26,721 bases of DNA from a virus (Duplodnaviria > Heunggongvirae > Uroviricota > Caudoviricetes), in the IMG/VR virus record IMGVR_UViG_2778260996_000006; one strand, 5' to 3'. Shown here piece by piece: positions 3,177 to 26,269 of this stretch. How positions within the stretch are numbered: the first letter of the stretch is position 1; every line of letters starts with the position of its first letter. The notes under the pieces are model-generated. The model was given only the letters and a program-made list of their open reading frames with translations. It searched no databases and was not told the DNA's origin. The translations under genes were made by a program, and so were the position numbers.

Positions 3177-3763
3177 TAGCCGCCCCCCAGTAATGACGCC
3201 ACGTTACCCGTGATGCTTTTCAGCAGTGAAGTATCTGGAGGCTTGGTGGTTTTGTTGCCGCTGTTCTGTACCGCCGACGTGCTGGCCCCTTCCTTCATGT
3301 TGGTTTTATCCGCGACGGAAATCTGCTGTGTCCGGGAGATAAGGACCTCCCTCAGGGTGAGGACGGCGGACAGGACGTTTTCGGTTGTCTTGTCCGTCGT
3401 CACTTCCAGCGCCCGGATCAACATGTTGCTGTACAGTCGTTTACCGGTTACCACATCGAAGGGGATACGGCTTTCCTGCAGATCCAGTAGCTCCTGATAC
3501 GTCTGCTGAGGACTCAGGCCGAGCAGGCTGGTAGCCGTCAGGTTACTGGCAAAATCCAGCAATGCGCCACCACCGGCGAAACCAACCTCCATCACCACTT
3601 CTGACGGTTTTTTATAGGCATGATCAGCGACAGCGGCCCCGACCTCTACCGGATGCTCTGTTATTTCAAGCATATCTGTATGCTTCTCTGAAATAACAAC
3701 ACAGGGAACAATCATTCCTATTTTTCTGCTCTGCTGATGAAAAAGTGTAGAGAGAATATCCAC
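3176..3763 (-). CDS. hypothetical tail protein (195 aa), start overlaps tape-measure stop (TGATG)
   Basis: ORF track; translational coupling to the upstream gene. Confidence 0.5.
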   Translation of the reverse strand: MDILSTLFHQQSRKIGMIVPCVVISEKHTDMLEITEHPVEVGAAVADHAYKKPSEVVMEVGFAGGGALLDFASNLTATSLLGLSPQQTYQELLDLQESRIPFDVVTGKRLYSNMLIRALEVTTDKTTENVLSAVLTLREVLISRTQQISVADKTNMKEGASTSAVQNSGNKTTKPPDTSLLKSITGNVASLLGGG

Positions 3764-5751
3764 TAACCCACCCTCACCTGATTACTTCGCATGACCTGAG
3801 CATTTGCAGACTGTTGCCGACGTGCAACCTCATTACCGACAGCGTGCGGATCTCCACCACCGTAAATGTGGTAGGTATTTTGCTGGTTAACCTCTGTCAC
3901 TTTGCCACTAATTCCCGCCACGGCAGCCTTATTAATCAGCTCCCGAGAATAGATATTTCTTCCATTCTCATGCTGGATAATGCTGCTCATCAATGCTGAC
4001 ATGGTTTGCGGATCGCTCATATTCAGGGCAGCCCGGGGATCCACTCCCAGTCGTTGCGATACAGCCCTGATATACGCAGTTGTGTTGTTATTATCAGACG
4101 CAGGTGCCCAGGTAGAGATAATTTTCTCCACACTGTTTATTCCCCGTCCGGCGTACAGCATTAACTGACGAGCAAGAGCCCGTAATCCATCAAAAGCAGT
4201 TTCAAATCTGGCAAATCGCCCGCCCGGGCGTTCAAGAGAAGCCCCTGCCTGACCAGCAAAATTAAGGTTTCCCGGATTGTTATTCCGTTCTCCTCGTTTC
4301 GTAGCCTGTGCATGTTGTTCCGGCTCATCATCACCAAACCAGCCGCGTACCGTCCGGCCCACACTGCGGGGATCGAATCCCCAGTGCTCTTTAATCCAGT
4401 CGGCAGTACTGTTAGCGCTGTCTGTAACCATCGGCATCGCTGACGGATTTTCGCTGCCCTGATTAAGTATCTGTTTGCCGATGCTGACGGCATCAGCCCA
4501 GCGGCCATCTTTGATAGCGTTGAGCAGGTCGGCGATCATGTTCAGCATTTTGCTGAATTCGCCCATCTGGTCGATGAAGTTGCTGAAATCCCACTTCAGG
4601 GACCATGATTTGGGGTCAATATTGAGCAGTTTCGCCAGCGCTTTCACCAGGTCGTTAACGGTCGTTTTAAGGTCACGAACCATCTTCAGCGCGGCATCGA
4701 CCTCCGGTTTCCACTTGCCCCAGTCAATCAGGCTGTCGCCGCCTTCCTTCCAGGTCTGATAGTCCTCCCACAGGAGGGCAATACCCGCCGCCAGCGCGGT
4801 AATGAGGCCAATCGGCGACATCCAGAACGTACTGTTCAGAATGCGCAGCGCAATCGTCAGTGCGCCAAACAGCGAGATCAACTCCCGCGTTTGCTTATCC
4901 AGCGATTGCCACCAGGTGATAAGGCCTGATGTCCCCTCAATCAGTCTGAAGAACAGCCGCCCGATAATATCCCCGAGCGCCAGAATGCCTTTTATGGCTT
5001 TCGTCAGGGTCTGCTCGATACGAGGGAAGTTGTCCAGGATATGGCGGCGCAGGGTGTCCAGCGAACCCGCAAGCCCCCCCGCAAGATTAGAGCCGATTTT
5101 GTCACGGGCCATGCCTGCCATCGCGCCAAACTCACGCAGGGAGGTCATAAATTTGTTGGAGCTTCTGGCCGCCTCGTCAGCATTGAAGCCGATAGCTTTC
5201 GCCATTGCGCTGTACTGCCCGGAGAAGCCACCCACACCCCGGCGCATCGCCATAAGGGTATTTTCGTCAATGCCCAGCATCTGCGCATACTGGTTAGCCC
5301 GGTAATACGGCATGCTGCTGAGTTTCTGTCCAACGCCCGTAAAAATAGCGGCCATGTCACGCATGTTACCGCTGGCATCACGGGTCTGTACGCCCAGGCG
5401 ATTCAGAAAGCCTTCTGCACCGGGATTGTTACGAATAAACCGGGATAGGCTTTCCAGAGAAGATCGCGCAGCGTCCACGCTGCCGCCAACCTGCGAAACC
5501 GCATAGCCAATAGACTGAATTCCCTGGACTGTCGCGCCGGTGCGCTGTGACGCCCAGTAAAGATTATCCAGGCCGGAGGCGATCTTAGCCGTGAAGGCCA
5601 CCACGGACAACGCAGCTCCTTCAACAGCCAGCCCCATTTTGATGACATTTGCAGTTGTACCGGCGAGGACAGAACCGAACTTTTTCGCTCCTGCATCATC
5701 CACACTGAAGCCAAGCGAGACGAGGAAATCTTTAATAGTTTCAGCGTTCAT
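3763..5751 (-). CDS. tail tape measure protein
   Basis: Long protein with a central hydrophobic block, directly downstream of the frameshifted chaperone; start trimmed to MNAETIKDF (ATG at 5751, GAGAGAGGA RBS). Confidence 0.8.
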   Translation of the reverse strand: MNAETIKDFLVSLGFSVDDAGAKKFGSVLAGTTANVIKMGLAVEGAALSVVAFTAKIASGLDNLYWASQRTGATVQGIQSIGYAVSQVGGSVDAARSSLESLSRFIRNNPGAEGFLNRLGVQTRDASGNMRDMAAIFTGVGQKLSSMPYYRANQYAQMLGIDENTLMAMRRGVGGFSGQYSAMAKAIGFNADEAARSSNKFMTSLREFGAMAGMARDKIGSNLAGGLAGSLDTLRRHILDNFPRIEQTLTKAIKGILALGDIIGRLFFRLIEGTSGLITWWQSLDKQTRELISLFGALTIALRILNSTFWMSPIGLITALAAGIALLWEDYQTWKEGGDSLIDWGKWKPEVDAALKMVRDLKTTVNDLVKALAKLLNIDPKSWSLKWDFSNFIDQMGEFSKMLNMIADLLNAIKDGRWADAVSIGKQILNQGSENPSAMPMVTDSANSTADWIKEHWGFDPRSVGRTVRGWFGDDEPEQHAQATKRGERNNNPGNLNFAGQAGASLERPGGRFARFETAFDGLRALARQLMLYAGRGINSVEKIISTWAPASDNNNTTAYIRAVSQRLGVDPRAALNMSDPQTMSALMSSIIQHENGRNIYSRELINKAAVAGISGKVTEVNQQNTYHIYGGGDPHAVGNEVARRQQSANAQVMRSNQVRVG

Positions 5752-6381
5752 TATCCTCTCTCCATTTCTCAATGCGTCGCTGGTTATCCGCTTTTACCGC
5801 CAGATGGTCATTCAAGAGAGCAATGTCATACAAATCGACAGAGCCATCTTTAAGTGCTGTATAAGGAATTAACCCGGCGTCAACCGGATTGAGAAGGTAG
5901 GACAGCCCGTCCGGCAGGCTGTTAAACGTCAGCCCTGTTGCAGGCTCTGCGTCGTGCTGGTAAGGGGTGTAGGCAAAAAATTTCCCAGCGAATCGGCGAC
6001 CACCCGCGCCACCAGCTGCAGCATGACCAGCAAGTCAATATCATCAAACATCAGTTCGCCCTGGGTAAATACCGGCACCCATCCGTCCATATGACGCCGC
6101 GATACCACCGCAAGACAGGGATGAATAATCGCATCGGTGTCATCTTCGGTCAGGGAAGACAGTTCCTCAGCGATACGCGGGAGCATGGTTTCAAACACCG
6201 GTTTTAACTGTTCGAATTTCACGGTGTCGATTTTGCCGTCAGCAGGCAAACGGGAGCGAATACTCCCGAAATCTGACATCATTCCTGCCAGCACCGGCAG
6301 AAGTTTGCGGGTCACTTTCAGCTGGTCAAAAACGCTGAGTTTTGCCGTGCGATATTTCACGCCTTTAATTTCGAATTCCAT
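5741..6381 (-). CDS. tail assembly chaperone -1 frameshift fusion product (GT-like, about 210 aa)
   Basis: In-frame A_AAT_TTT (plus 5983-5977) followed by an open -1 frame of about 78 codons filling the 156-bp gap and ending at TGA 5743-5741, just past the tape-measure ATG. Confidence 0.55.
5929..6381 (-). CDS. tail assembly chaperone (G-like, zero-frame product)
   Basis: 150-aa ORF between tube-like gene and tape measure; carries slippery heptamer near its 3' end. Confidence 0.7.
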   Translation of the reverse strand: MEFEIKGVKYRTAKLSVFDQLKVTRKLLPVLAGMMSDFGSIRSRLPADGKIDTVKFEQLKPVFETMLPRIAEELSSLTEDDTDAIIHPCLAVVSRRHMDGWVPVFTQGELMFDDIDLLVMLQLVARVVADSLGNFLPTPLTSTTQSLQQG

Positions 6382-6384
6382 GCA

Positions 6385-6825
6385 TTAAAACTCCCCGAGA
6401 ACCTGGTCAATCTTGCCGCAGTCAAACACCCACGGCATCGTATTACCGGTTTTAGCGTTGGCGTTATCCGGTTGTTTCTGGAACGCAACACTGCGTGCCG
6501 TGATGATGTCGCCGCTGACCTTGTTGCGGATCACGATAACGTTATTCCCCCATGTGGCAGAAGACTGGCTCTGTGCGTTATACGCCAGCGACAATTTTTT
6601 ATTTGTCGGTGATGTCTTCAGAAGGTTAACGGTAATCGTCCCGCTTTTATCTGCATGGAGACTGTGCATCACTTCGCCATCAGCACCGATGGTCATGGTG
6701 TTTTTAGGACCGCCCATCGCAACCACAATCCCCTCTTCAGAACTTGCCGAACCGTACCCGAGGTCAATCGAACCTGTCGGCCCGGTCAGCGTCGCAGTGA
6801 CATCCATAAAAGAATAGGTAGACAT
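6385..6825 (-). CDS. tail tube-like protein (146 aa)
   Basis: Size and position immediately upstream of chaperone/tape-measure genes; family assignment by recollection only. Confidence 0.6.
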   Translation of the reverse strand: MSTYSFMDVTATLTGPTGSIDLGYGSASSEEGIVVAMGGPKNTMTIGADGEVMHSLHADKSGTITVNLLKTSPTNKKLSLAYNAQSQSSATWGNNVIVIRNKVSGDIITARSVAFQKQPDNANAKTGNTMPWVFDCGKIDQVLGEF

Positions 6826-6835
6826 TCACTTCCCC

Positions 6836-7981
6836 TTAGCGAACAACGTTAATCTGTACGTCAGCGTAATGAACCGCGCCTGCAAGTTTTATTGCAGCCT
6901 GAATCACCGGAGCCTTACGGGCTTCACGTTCTGATTGAGCCTGTTCATCCAGCGGCTGAGCGTATACGTAATAACCTTTGGGCAGTGTGTCACCTGATGA
7001 CAACTGACCAAGGTCGCCCCCGTTCCATACGCCCGGAGCAATCAGTCCATTCTGAACGGCCTGATCCAGTGATTTTTCAACATTTGATAACAGTCGGGTA
7101 ATACCGGCTTCAGTCTGGGGAACTTTCGTGGTGCTGGTATAAAGCAGGTTATAGAGGTTGGTCTGCACATAATTCTGTAACCAGTCCAGGCCGTGGCGTT
7201 CATCAAAGAAATCGCCGTTAGCCATCACTCCCTGCTGGAGGATAGCCGTATCATTCTGGTAGTACACGAATACATTGCAGTTTTTTGCATCAAGTGCCGA
7301 TGCCTGGCTGACTGTCAGTGTTTCATACCCGATACCCGGCTCCTGCTTAAACTTGAGCGTAATCGCGGTATTACTGCCATTGAAATTAACCGTGAATGCC
7401 CGGCCAAATGCAGATAACGCAGCGTATTTATTACCCGATGAATACTGAATAAAACTGCGTGAATATCCGGCGGTTTTCAGTTTTGATGCCAAATCATCGC
7501 TGGATGCAGTCTGCAGGCATTTCTCATCGCTTGTCGTAATCGCCAGAATACGGCTTACAGAAGAGGATTCGATCGCCGCAGCCACTTTCAGCCAGTCTGC
7601 ATCCTGAATATCTTCATCGTCTGCAATCCCCAGCCCATACCATGAAGTATAATCAAGCATGGCATTCACAGCCTGCTCCAGCGTCTCAGGCGTGGCCTGT
7701 TCGCTGTCTCCCTTCGTTTTCACCCAACGACCAACAAAAACCTCCTGAGGTTTCGGTGATTGAGAGAAAAACACCTGCGCAGCCTTATATTCTGGTGATT
7801 CCACGCCAAAATCTTTTCCAATATCTTCCGCGGCAGAATAACGGCGAATGCGCTCACTTACCGGAATGATTGTGGACGGGCCGAGAATGAGTAATGCACC
7901 AAAATTTCGCCCTGATGCTGCACGCGGCGACATGATCACATCAACATTAACAACGTTTGATACAGGCAAGCCCTGTGCCAT
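6836..7981 (-). CDS. major tail structural protein, sheath-like (381 aa)
   Basis: Position upstream of tube-like gene; sheath identity is inference from synteny. Confidence 0.5.
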
Positions 7982-19978: not shown

Positions 19979-20150
19979 CTGTACCAATCTGTACCCACCT
20001 GTACCAGCTCTTTTCAAACCTTTTCCCCAAGCGACTTATATATATATATGGGGTTCTTAGTAATTAGGTTGGTACAGATGGTACAGTTGGTACTGACCTT
20101 TAAATTCAATTAGTTAAAATGTACCAACCTCTATTTTGAGGCTGGTACAG
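19979..20150. promoter_or_regulatory. putative replication origin: CTGTACC/GGTACAG iterons flanking a (TA)n tract
   Basis: Three CTGTACC at 10-bp phase (19979, 19989, 19999), TATATATATATAT at 20037-20049, three GGTAC(A/T)G at 9-bp phase (20071, 20080, 20089), further copies at 20120 and 20144. Confidence 0.45.
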
Positions 20151-22323
20151 GTTGGGACACCGCCTCAAAAATTCGAGTCATTTTCCCCCCAATTCGCCTT
20201 TGGGCACGCTTATACCCGCAATTTTGCAAAACATTACTAATTCGCATTTCTTCGCGTTTTCCGATGCGGTCAGGATTTAGCCCAATCGCATCACGCAAAA
20301 CATCACTTGCGCGTAAAAATTCGCAATTTCGCGGAAGTTCATTAGTCATCAGGTCTGGCGTGTCGAGCCATTTCTCTACCGTTTCAAGCCAAGCATCCTT
20401 GATGGTGTACTGTTCATGGACACTCGCTGCCAGTTGTTCAGCCTCACGGAACTGGATACCCCCCAGACGCTGAAACACCTCACGAGCCTCAGCCCAAAGT
20501 AAAAGGAGATCTCTTTTTATCGCTTTCACGTCGACTTTCGACACTTCCACGGGGAGCCAGCGACGGTTACCAGTCTTGTCCGCAAGGAATTCGTCCTCAT
20601 TGGTGGTACCAACGAACACCAGGCGACGAGGAAACTGGGTGGCGAACTCCCGGTATTTCGGGATCCAGTTTTCGTGAGTACGCGTCACAAACGCTTTGAT
20701 TGACTCCAGCTCTTTGGTATTAAGTCCGCGCAGTTCACCAATCTCTGCCACCAGCCGACCACGCATTTTTCGAGCGAGATCATCGTCTTTTTCGGCAAAA
20801 GAGATTTCAGTAAAAAACGCAGGATCAGGGCTCAGTGCCTCCACTCCGGAAGACTTACCGCAGCCCTGCGGACCAACGAGGATCGGCACCATATCCGCTT
20901 TGATGCCTGGCTCCAGTACTCGCCCCGCCAACGCGGTCCACATGTACATAGACACCGCACGGGTATAAGGCGTGTCGGCTGTACCGAAGTGCGTATGGTA
21001 GAAACATTCGATGCGCGGCACGCCATCCCACTCCAGCCCGTTCAGCCAGGTAATCGCTGAATCGAATGGTTGTTCATCGGCTGCAAGTAACACCACATCG
21101 CGAATAAGTTCACGACCAACAGGTTTAAATCCCCGCTTTTCCATCGTGATGCGCAGGCGCGCATAATCCGCATCGGTGAATGCTCGCCATTGTCCGGATC
21201 CTGCAGAGGCAAACATGATTTCGTCGCGGAACTGGTCAAAGCGAATATCGATGTCCACAAAATCAGGGCGTACTACTGCTTTGGCTGCGTTGCTGATGGT
21301 TGCCTCGATACGCCCCCATTTATCACGCTCGAAAGCAGGCAGCGGTAAAGGTTCCGCCACTTCGGTGCTGGTCAGATCTTCGAAATCGTCGTTGCGGATC
21401 CCGATGGCATTAAGGAAATCTCCGTCATCACGATGCGCACAACTGGCATGCAGGCATTTAAAATGCCCCTGCTCAAAGCCCGCGGTTCCCGCAGGAAAAT
21501 AAGCTGTGCTTGTTGGATCGCCCCCGCTACTGTGGCCGTCTTCAAACGGACAGCGGATATATCGTTCACCATTTGCGCCATCCAGCAGCGTCCAGCCATT
21601 GGCATCAAGATATTCAGCTGTATCATCCGTCGCGCCGGGCGTGAATGCTGATCGGTCGCGCATCTTCGTGTTGCCCGCTTCGGTGGTTACCGACACAGGG
21701 AGTTGTTCAGCCAGGCGCTGCCACAGCGTTTCAAGCTGCTCACCAGTAATAGCCGGAGGTTCATCCGGCAAACCACCGTCCCATTCAATACGCGCGCCGC
21801 TGCTGTGCGTACCACAGGCAACGAACTGCTGCCCGTTCGCCAGCAACTCGATAATGCCCATATCCCCCGCCAGGCGATGGATACGCTTACAGAAATCACC
21901 ATCAACGGCCAGCAGATACAGACACTTATTACTGTTTGCTCGCCAGCGTCGCGGCGGCAACTCCCCCAGAAGTTGCACAAGCGTTTTGCGAATATCTGCC
22001 TGAATGTCTTCATCTTCGCTATCGCAGTCCAGCGCCAGCCAGCCATGGCCTGTACGCACGCAGATGCCATAATCCGGTTCATTCGACCAGCGGGCAAAAT
22101 CATGCTCAGTAACAACATACCCGGTCCATTGAGCAATACCGGTGACCTGGCGGTCCCGGTTATAGCGACTTGGCGTCTTACCCAGCGCTTTCAGTTTACT
22201 ATCAGGGGATATGGTCGCACCGGGGTTACATACAACTGGGAGAAGATGATCAGTTCTCCCCAATACCAGGTCGAAATGAAACCACTCATCAGGCGTAGCT
22301 CCCCATGGTTTGCTATCGGACAT
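20131..22323 (-). CDS. replication primase/helicase, P4-alpha-like (730 aa)
   Basis: N-terminal primase-like region and C-terminal P-loop (GPQGCGKSS) with D5/P4-type NTPase features; adjacent to the iteron array. Confidence 0.75.
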   Translation of the reverse strand: MSDSKPWGATPDEWFHFDLVLGRTDHLLPVVCNPGATISPDSKLKALGKTPSRYNRDRQVTGIAQWTGYVVTEHDFARWSNEPDYGICVRTGHGWLALDCDSEDEDIQADIRKTLVQLLGELPPRRWRANSNKCLYLLAVDGDFCKRIHRLAGDMGIIELLANGQQFVACGTHSSGARIEWDGGLPDEPPAITGEQLETLWQRLAEQLPVSVTTEAGNTKMRDRSAFTPGATDDTAEYLDANGWTLLDGANGERYIRCPFEDGHSSGGDPTSTAYFPAGTAGFEQGHFKCLHASCAHRDDGDFLNAIGIRNDDFEDLTSTEVAEPLPLPAFERDKWGRIEATISNAAKAVVRPDFVDIDIRFDQFRDEIMFASAGSGQWRAFTDADYARLRITMEKRGFKPVGRELIRDVVLLAADEQPFDSAITWLNGLEWDGVPRIECFYHTHFGTADTPYTRAVSMYMWTALAGRVLEPGIKADMVPILVGPQGCGKSSGVEALSPDPAFFTEISFAEKDDDLARKMRGRLVAEIGELRGLNTKELESIKAFVTRTHENWIPKYREFATQFPRRLVFVGTTNEDEFLADKTGNRRWLPVEVSKVDVKAIKRDLLLLWAEAREVFQRLGGIQFREAEQLAASVHEQYTIKDAWLETVEKWLDTPDLMTNELPRNCEFLRASDVLRDAIGLNPDRIGKREEMRISNVLQNCGYKRAQRRIGGKMTRIFEAVSQPVPASK

Positions 22324-24967: not shown

Positions 24968-26269
24968 ATGCCAGACGTTCATGCACAACTTTCTCCATCA
25001 TCAGCGCATCGATGGATGCGCTGCCCAGGAAGTCTGGCGCTGGAGGCCACACAACCGGATAAAGAAACAACTTTTGCAATCGAGGGCACTGCAGCGCACG
25101 CGCTTGCTGAAAAAGTTCTACGAAACAGGCAAAGCCACCCGGAACACTACGCCGGATGCAATGTTTCTATGTTTCTCGGCTCATACCCCCTTCGCGAAAA
25201 TCCTGATGATACATCTGGCCCACAGGTGGATGATGAAATGGTCGAAGCCGTTGGCCGGTATGTTGATACGGTCTGGACTCTTGCACAGAATAATGAACTA
25301 TTGGTTGAACAACGTGTTGATTTCTCACATATAACGGGGGTGGAAGAATCTTTCGGAACTGCCGACGGCATAATCATCGCTGGTAACGAATTACAAATCC
25401 ACGACCTGAAATATGGCAAAGGCGTCCGCATTGATGCAGAACAAAATGAGCAACTACAACTGTATGCTCTGGGTGCGCTCGAACAATTCAGCATGCTGTA
25501 TGACTTTGAGACTGTAAGATTATTTATTCACCAGCCAAGGCTCAACCACGTTTCAGAATGGTCGTTAACCGTACAGGAACTTCAGTCTTTCGGTGAACGG
25601 GCACAGGAGGCCGCAACCAGTGCGATCCTTGTTCTCAATATTGCTGAATGCGAAGGCATTGAGACACTACCGCTGGAAAACTTCATACCTGGAGAAAAAC
25701 AGTGCCGCTTCTGTAAAGCAAAAGCTATTTGCACTGCCCAGAAAATGCAGCATTTACAAACAGCGGCCAGCGATTTTGAAGATCTGACAAAGCCTGTCAG
25801 CGAAATAATCACCAATGCCAGCGCACGTGTACCTCTGTTAACCATTGAGCAGCTTGCGGAGATCTATAGCCAGGCCGACTTTATTGAATCCTGGCTAAAG
25901 GCAGTACGGGACCGGGTTCACAATGAACTCAATGCCGGACATCCGGTACCGGGGTTTAAACTGGTAACAGGAAAACAAGGTAACCGGGCCTGGAGTGATG
26001 AAGAGGCAGCTCGCGCACTTCTGAAGGACCAGTTCAGGTACAAAACTGAAGAAGTATTCGACTTTAAACTTATTAGTCCCACAAAAGCCGAAAAACTTAT
26101 CAAAAAGGCCAGTCCACGCCGTTGGTCAAAAGTCGAGGCACTGATAACACGAGCTGATGGTAAACCAACCGTCATTCCCGAGTCAGACCCACGCCCCGCA
26201 CTCAATATCAACCCTGTAAATGATTTCGACGACGTATCCGACGATACGCTAACCGCAGACCTCATCTGA
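24968..26269 (+). CDS. PD-(D/E)XK nuclease, Cas4/RecB-like with Fe-S Cys cluster (DUF2800-like)
   Basis: N-terminal [14 protein letters not shown]; catalytic-like GTADG ... [10 protein letters not shown]-terminal C-x2-C-x5-C cluster. Confidence 0.75.

Follow-up and report, generated by a model that had tools for sequence, protein, structure and literature searches.

Programmed -1 ribosomal frameshifting in tail assembly chaperone genes is a textbook phenomenon in tailed phages. In phage lambda, a -1 frameshift at G_GGA_AAG gives gpG and gpGT at a ratio of about 30:1 (Levin 1993; Xu 2004, 2013, 2014, as summarized in PMC5009743), and in the model outlined there the G part binds the tape measure protein and the T part binds the tube (PMC5009743). 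In phage P2, the -1 frameshift at TTTTTTG that produces gpE and gpE+E' has been determined experimentally (Christie et al. 2002, as cited in PMC3091744), and P2 and its relatives have no downstream stimulatory structure (PMC3091744). In the P2 record itself the site reads GGT TTT TTG; the shift is annotated as following the G, and E' overlaps gene T by 8 nucleotides (nt). In GenBank, a joined 'tape measure chaperone frameshift product' is already annotated for Klebsiella phage Mulock (CPT_Mulock_014/015) and Burkholderia phage Magia (CPT_Magia_015/016). Here, we analyzed a DNA stretch of 26,721 nt from a virus of the Caudoviricetes (IMG/VR record IMGVR_UViG_2778260996_000006), which is a prophage of Escherichia coli and is referred to below, at its full length, as the window. 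Judging from its sequence and that of its relatives, the tail assembly chaperone gene on the minus strand of the window very probably relies on programmed -1 ribosomal frameshifting, as known from lambda G/GT and P2 E/E+E'.

Read directly on the minus strand, the zero frame of the chaperone gene starts at ATG 6381, runs through ...GAT TCG CTG GGA AAT TTT TTG CCT... and stops at TGA 5931-5929. Three overlapping slippery heptamers sit 16-18 codons ahead of this stop. The features on which the argument turns are the following:

5929-6381, minus strand: tail assembly chaperone, zero-frame product ('G'), 150 amino acids (aa); Phage_TAC_15, phrog_1688
5974-5986, minus strand: slippery tract G_GGA_AAT_TTT_TTG, three overlapping X_XXY_YYZ heptamers in zero-frame register
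5986-5980, minus strand: G_GGA_AAT, first heptamer of the tract, in register
5977-5983, minus strand: A_AAT_TTT, middle heptamer, in register, 17 codons before the chaperone stop
5974-5980, minus strand: T_TTT_TTG, third heptamer, 16 codons before the chaperone stop, the same as the P2 E/E' slip site
5741-5980, minus strand: -1 extension ('T' part), 79 codons plus TGA 5743-5741; DUF6889, phrog_4364
5741-6381, minus strand: predicted GT fusion, 213 aa, from 6381 to the slip site in the zero frame and then in the -1 frame to 5744, built from the two translations

A preliminary description of this DNA had placed A_AAT_TTT (5983-5977) in the zero frame, 17 codons before the stop, and the direct reading agrees: the heptamer stands in X_XXY_YYZ register because A5983 is a third codon position. 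It had also described the -1 frame as open for about 78 codons to TGA 5743-5741, overlapping the tape-measure start. Translation of the minus strand gives 79 open codons from 5980 (the entire -1 open stretch is 6034-5741), and the -1 stop overlaps the tape-measure gene (ATG 5751) by 11 nt. The apparent gap between the two genes, put at 156 bp in that description, is coding as it had proposed, but the size given assumes a start at TTG 5772; with ATG 5751 the gap is 177 nt. The frameshift would explain this otherwise odd gap; the -1 frame across it encodes a conserved domain, DUF6889. Of the features by which Xu, Hendrix and Duda (2004) recognized G/GT systems, the four that can be read from sequence are found at this locus, namely two overlapping open reading frames (ORFs) between the tube and tape-measure genes, an in-register slippery heptamer near the end of the chaperone gene, a -1 ORF without a translation start of its own (RefSeq resorted to CTG), and a slip site and -1 ORF kept in diverged relatives under protein-level selection.

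The arrangement resembles that of P2 in several respects. Both are myoviruses with the gene order sheath, tube, chaperone and tape measure, both have T_TTT_TTG in the same register, a downstream stimulatory structure is found in neither, and the -1 extension ends inside the tape-measure gene (8 nt in P2 and 11 nt in the prophage). However, no sequence similarity is detectable between the two systems (BLASTP E 0.68), which belong to separate Pfam families, with no match of the prophage products to the P2 E family. Moreover, the chaperone products are 150 and 213 aa long in the prophage versus 91 and 142 aa in P2, the distance from slip site to stop is 16 codons instead of 6, and the prophage has two extra overlapping heptamers upstream. 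The prophage chaperone works like P2 E/E', yet it lies outside the P2 gpE protein family. As in lambda, there would be two products with a common N-terminus, the long form arising when a small share of ribosomes shift to -1 shortly before the end of a gene located immediately upstream of the tape measure gene, and the first heptamer of the prophage, G_GGA_AAT, resembles the lambda G_GGA_AAG. The lambda tail differs in being non-contractile, and the A-site tRNA would be that for Asn in the prophage rather than that for Lys because the last base of the heptamer is T instead of G. No sequence relationship to lambda was found, the Pfam matches being only TAC_15 and DUF6889. By comparison, Mulock and Magia contain true homologues of both parts, and their joined coding sequences (CDSs) end inside the tape-measure start. 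Mulock shares the GGGAAATTTTTTG tract with its register unchanged, and in Magia the slip site lies at the same codons, with C_CCT_TTT replacing the prophage tract. These two frameshifts are annotated as predictions only, whereas the E. coli RefSeq records annotate no frameshift at all.

As a background, 22 in-register heptamers were counted over the 28 likely genes of the window (7,584 codons). The -1 frames of those outside the chaperone gene are open for just 2-46 codons, and none of them continues past the stop of its own gene, with one trivial exception. The frameshift pattern of the chaperone gene exceeds chance. The exception is an in-register G_GGG_GGC at 3182-3188 (minus strand), 3 codons before the stop of a Dit-like gene (3763-3176). 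The -1 frame there is the frame of the next gene, which encodes a Pam3 gp18-like plug protein (3176-2874), and this is most likely a coincidental overlap of gene ends rather than a second recoding site.

The 79-residue -1 peptide matches Pfam DUF6889 (PF21829) with 73.4 bits (cut-off 23.9; E 1.2e-20; model positions 2-40 of 40) and phrog_4364 with an E value of 1.9e-23. Relatives from viral contigs were uninformative, all 80 loci being 94-100% identical, and the diversity came from bacterial genome contigs. The comparative set consists of 61 loci from one-genome-per-species bacterial assemblies and 3 phage records, 64 in all with the window included, which represent about 60 species (mostly Enterobacterales) with chaperone identities of 49-91%. 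An in-register heptamer is present at the same codons across these loci. The -1 ORF, counted from the tract, has 77-84 codons in 62 of the 64, and in all 61 loci with a placeable tape-measure ATG it ends 4-22 nt inside that gene, mostly with an 11-nt overlap; the ATG equivalent to 5751 is at the same position in nearly all homologues. Only two loci, from Enterobacter sp. R1(2018) (L118) and an Arsenophonus metagenome-assembled genome (L135), have premature -1 stops, after 39 and 11 codons, respectively, and they probably represent decaying prophages.

The -1 peptides can be aligned from their first residues (FFARTPRQRD; consensus FFaRtPrqrd...LPdGed...DL.diA.mND.Ld.kaDN..RI..Wr). Upstream of the tract, the codon-position entropy in the zero frame is 0.67/0.47/1.23 bits, with the maximum at position 3. 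Downstream, the corresponding values in the -1 frame are 0.80/0.72/1.35 bits in the overlap with the chaperone tail and 0.75/0.57/1.39 bits past the chaperone stop, and the slippery tract is exactly where the wobble phase passes into the -1 frame. For a conserved -1-frame Arg (CGN), the fourfold-degenerate third base, which is position 2 in the zero frame, is freely variable (C in 17, A in 20, T in 10 and G in 6). Over the first nine codons past the tract, mean pairwise amino acid identity is 65% in the -1 frame versus 38% in the zero frame. Also conserved is the chaperone's own stop, which follows the tract after 13-18 codons. The -1 frame is under protein-level (purifying) selection, and this selection begins exactly at the tract. 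The G/GT-type frameshift that had first been suggested gains support from the DUF6889 domain encoded in the -1 frame, from the lack of any canonical start in that frame ahead of its final 30 codons, and from a slippery tract, -1 ORF and tape-measure overlap that are kept in nearly the whole comparative set.

A few database records related to this locus are unusual in themselves. A 799-kb contig labelled Chryseobacterium sp. 18061 (L096) contains the same tail module with an identical slippery tract and a chaperone of 71% aa identity, and Elizabethkingia phage EKP1 (OM284015; H36 and H58) has the same module at about 70% nucleotide identity, again with an identical tract. The occurrence of an enterobacterial-type tail module in records attributed to Bacteroidota suggests mislabelling, contamination or an unexpected host range. 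In addition, a 212-aa protein from a Logan contig (P0076) consists of a DUF977-like N-terminus (PF06163) followed by a homologous chaperone that lacks its N-terminal third; this chimera probably comes from a rearranged or misassembled prophage.

Under the proposed mechanism, the majority of ribosomes would translate 6381-5929 and yield the 150-aa chaperone, and a minority would slip one base back on G_GGA_AAT_TTT_TTG (5986-5974) and continue in the -1 frame. The slipped ribosomes would terminate at TGA 5743-5741 and release a 213-aa fusion with the DUF6889 domain at its C-terminal end. If the roles are as in lambda, the shared N-terminal part may coat the tape-measure protein and the part made only by frameshifting may recruit the tube protein, and tail assembly would need a fixed, low ratio of the long to the short product. 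A stimulatory RNA structure is apparently not involved, as in P2. That ribosomes do shift here, how often and on which heptamer they do so, and what the T part binds are all points that we infer.

To compare the three heptamers, conservation was counted over 53 unique Enterobacterales sequences. All 53 have the T6 run, the next base being G in 48 of them, T in 3 and C in 2; A_AAT_TTT occurs in 45 and G_GGA_AAT in 44. Within the tract, the Phe codon is always TTT, the Leu codon is always TTG and never CTN or TTA, and the replacements of the Asn codon (AGT for Ser, GGT for Gly and GAT for Asp) always retain the third-position T. Codons beside the tract vary freely at third positions, and the adjacent Asp codon is split between GAT (27) and GAC (24). 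The fixed codon choice within the tract therefore indicates selection on nucleotides and points to T_TTT_TTG. With respect to A_AAT_TTT, which the preliminary description had named as the slip site, its register holds and it is a plausible slip site, but it is the middle one of three heptamers and the invariant element within Enterobacterales is T_TTT_TTN.

In more distant relatives, from phages of Burkholderia, Acinetobacter, Ralstonia, Providencia and Bordetella with a T-part identity of 35-42%, a heptamer again falls on the LG(N/P)F codons, but its sequence differs. It is C_CCT_TTT in Burkholderia phages Magia and BgManors32, G_GGA_AAT plus A_AAT_TTT (AAT TTT ATT, without the T6 run) in Acinetobacter phage AbTJ, G_GGT_TTT plus T_TTT_TTC in a Ralstonia phage, T_TTT_TTT in Providencia phage PSTCR3, and G_GGA_AAT alone (GGA AAT ACT) in a Bordetella phage. 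T6 alone is retained in Erwinia, Kalamiella, Limnobaculum and Arsenophonus loci as well as in PSTCR3. In E. coli reporter data, the H_HH.U_UU.Y class, including A_AAU_UUU, is among the most efficient motifs (PMC4066793). We lean toward a slip on T_TTT_TTG and/or A_AAT_TTT. The choice leaves the frameshift conclusion unaffected because all three heptamers feed the same -1 frame, and the alternative fusion products differ solely at residue 136, which is Phe after a shift on either of the upstream heptamers and Leu after a shift on T_TTT_TTG. The predicted junction peptide would be ADSLGNFFAYTPYQHDAE if slippage occurs on G_GGA_AAT or A_AAT_TTT, and ADSLGNFLAYTPYQHDAE if it occurs on T_TTT_TTG. 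A broader and rather tentative idea, which we hold to be more doubtful than probable, is that the three heptamers form a cassette whose lineage-specific subsets tune the G:GT ratio to the host tRNA pool; at the same tentative level, DUF6889 may separately be an unrecognized tube-binding 'T' domain of E217/PhiTE-type contractile tails that databases wrongly list as a gene of its own or under the name 'NTP pyrophosphohydrolase'.

Several results weigh against a frameshift of this kind. A single-sequence fold of 5990-5880 (111 nt) gave no sign of a downstream stimulator (z -0.56 versus shuffled sequences), and RNAalifold on 17 diverse homologues returned 0 consensus pairs downstream of the tract; the missing structure is weak counter-evidence because P2 also lacks one. 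In reporter assays in E. coli, U_UUG performs weakly as an A-site tetramer (PMC4066793). In the literature, no paper mentions DUF6889 or Phage_TAC_15, and the Mulock genome paper leaves the frameshift unmentioned; for the prophage and for every member of the family the frameshift is a computational prediction. The AlphaFold2 model of the fusion, built from a 30-row alignment, has a mean predicted local distance difference test (pLDDT) score of 59, and because of this poor model the proposed role of the T part is without structural support. The pLDDT is about 70-80 in the chaperone part and below 50 in the linker from residue 134 on and in most of the T part. Within this model the G part is of moderate confidence, and the linker starting at the slip site is probably disordered. 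A Foldseek search of the same poor model against the PDB gave no match with an E value below 3, a PDB sequence search returned nothing relevant, and NCBIfam has no family match for the fusion.

A first alternative is that the DUF6889 region is a separate small gene with its own start, either the CTG used by RefSeq or TTG 5833. The RefSeq annotation maps to the window as follows:

5741-5905, minus strand: RefSeq/PGAP 'DUF6889 family protein', 54 aa, CTG start (5905-5903), mapped from 2096-2260 of L001

Besides this CDS, the databases contain 26 clusters of comparable small ORFs from the DUF6889 region, and some homologues have an ATG at extension codon 29-30. However, CTG is very rare as a start and no good Shine-Dalgarno motif lies directly upstream of it. 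With canonical starts, the only ORF in the -1 frame of the window is one of 30 aa from TTG 5833, there being no ATG, GTG or TTG before extension codon 49, and many homologues have none before codon 55-61. Both the conservation and the wobble periodicity of the -1 frame set in at the tract, which precedes CTG 5905 by 25 codons, and in several loci a -1-frame stop directly upstream of the tract shuts the frame, which therefore opens at the heptamers. The called ORFs also vary in length (43-78 aa) and in name, including 'NTP pyrophosphohydrolase', and their 26 clusters stand beside more than 679 matches for the chaperone. So few clusters with such inconsistent lengths and names are the signature of gene callers improvising starts, and the 'NTP pyrophosphohydrolase' label is evidently a propagated misnomer. 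We judge the 54-aa RefSeq CDS to be an annotation artefact and consider a separate gene very improbable. A regulatory role of the 'gap' was also considered and rejected: it has no promoter-like site, and its one terminator-like hairpin is at chance level (1 versus 0.4 +/- 0.6 expected).

In a second alternative, RNA polymerase would add one U at the T6 run and thereby produce an in-frame mRNA. T6 is invariant in the Enterobacterales set, and a T7 DNA variant yields exactly the 213-aa fused ORF. Such a variant, with T7 instead of T6, is present at 1001-1007 of a Logan contig (SRR23924998_45326; L152), where the chaperone and DUF6889 form a 213-aa in-frame ORF. Furthermore, a 213-aa ORF that is 99% identical to the predicted fusion (P0001) belongs to a cluster of 16, several of them 212-213 aa long and including E. 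coli ISC7 CDL28562.1. Errors in sequencing the homopolymer could account for these T7 assemblies, or else they are genuine variants that make GT only. For RNA polymerase to slip efficiently, a run of about 8-9 bases or longer is usually required, and a run of six T is short by this measure. Distant relatives in Burkholderia, Acinetobacter and Bordetella keep an in-register ribosomal heptamer without a homopolymer run, which makes transcriptional slippage unlikely and fits tRNA re-pairing. In addition, the identical TTTTTTG of P2 is described as a site of translational frameshifting (PMC3091744; P2 record annotation). Overall, there is very little chance that slippage of the polymerase accounts for the pattern. 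The weakest alternative, in which an ancestral single ORF was split by a 1-nt deletion in the T run (or by a sequencing error) and its downstream part is unexpressed, could draw on those assemblies, that of E. coli ISC7 among them, in which T7 leaves the 213-aa ORF unbroken, but it is excluded for practical purposes by conservation and purifying selection, given that the identical two-frame arrangement occurs in 368 E. coli genomes, in isolated phages of 99.7% identity and in 62 of the 64 loci across many genera, that the -1 part is under clear purifying selection, and that the zero-frame stop past the tract is conserved too.

With a programmed ribosomal frameshift as the preferred explanation, the main value of the finding is one of annotation, in that a 177-nt 'intergenic gap' in a prophage of 368 complete E. 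coli genomes codes for protein. The RefSeq DUF6889 and 'NTP pyrophosphohydrolase' entries would be fragments of a frameshift product, which allows DUF6889 to be interpreted as the T part of Phage_TAC_15 chaperones. The locus also adds to the G/GT rule a comparative case of about 60 species, with heptamers that vary at a fixed protein position, from an E217/PhiTE-like tail type for which no description of the frameshift has appeared in print. The three-heptamer cassette with its lineage-specific retention, and DUF6889 as a T part, are modest extras, and no concept is changed by the finding.

The genomic context agrees with this assignment. Bases 5600-6500 of the window are 100% identical to enterotoxigenic E. 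coli (ETEC) H10407, O103:H2 12009 and many further strains. Among 5,426 complete E. coli genomes, 368 have a match to this segment, and phages vB_EcoM-606R2, -689R2, -611R5 and -683R1 share 99.7% identity with it as well as the same two-frame arrangement. The chaperone matches Pfam Phage_TAC_15 (PF21822) with 108.3 bits (cut-off 22; E 4.9e-31; model positions 1-122 of 127) and phrog_1688 (tail assembly chaperone) with an E value of 3.6e-65. On the minus strand, the order sheath, tube, chaperone and tape measure constitutes a contractile-tail module, the other members of which are:

6836-7981, minus strand: tail sheath protein, 381 aa; Pfam DUF3383 (E 1e-100), phrog_205 tail sheath (E 1.4e-135)
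6385-6825, minus strand: tail tube protein, 146 aa; Pfam KPP10_Orf10 (E 8.8e-61), also labelled Phage_Tube_PhiTE
3763-5751, minus strand: tape measure protein, 662 aa, ATG 5751 (the RefSeq start); phrog_2276 (E 9e-284)

The matches to KPP10_Orf10, Phage_TAC_15 and phrog_2276 agree with the tube, chaperone and tape-measure identities that had been assigned from the letters alone. Dit-like, plug and hub proteins are encoded downstream of the tape measure gene, and neck terminator, major capsid and portal genes lie upstream of the tail module. The element is a temperate E. coli myovirus prophage with a contractile tail. At the far end of the window, a 730-aa VapE-like domain protein (20131-22323, minus strand) and a DUF2800/PD-(D/E)XK nuclease protein (24968-26269, plus strand) probably represent, judging by their domains, a prophage replication/recombination module that is unrelated to the frameshift.

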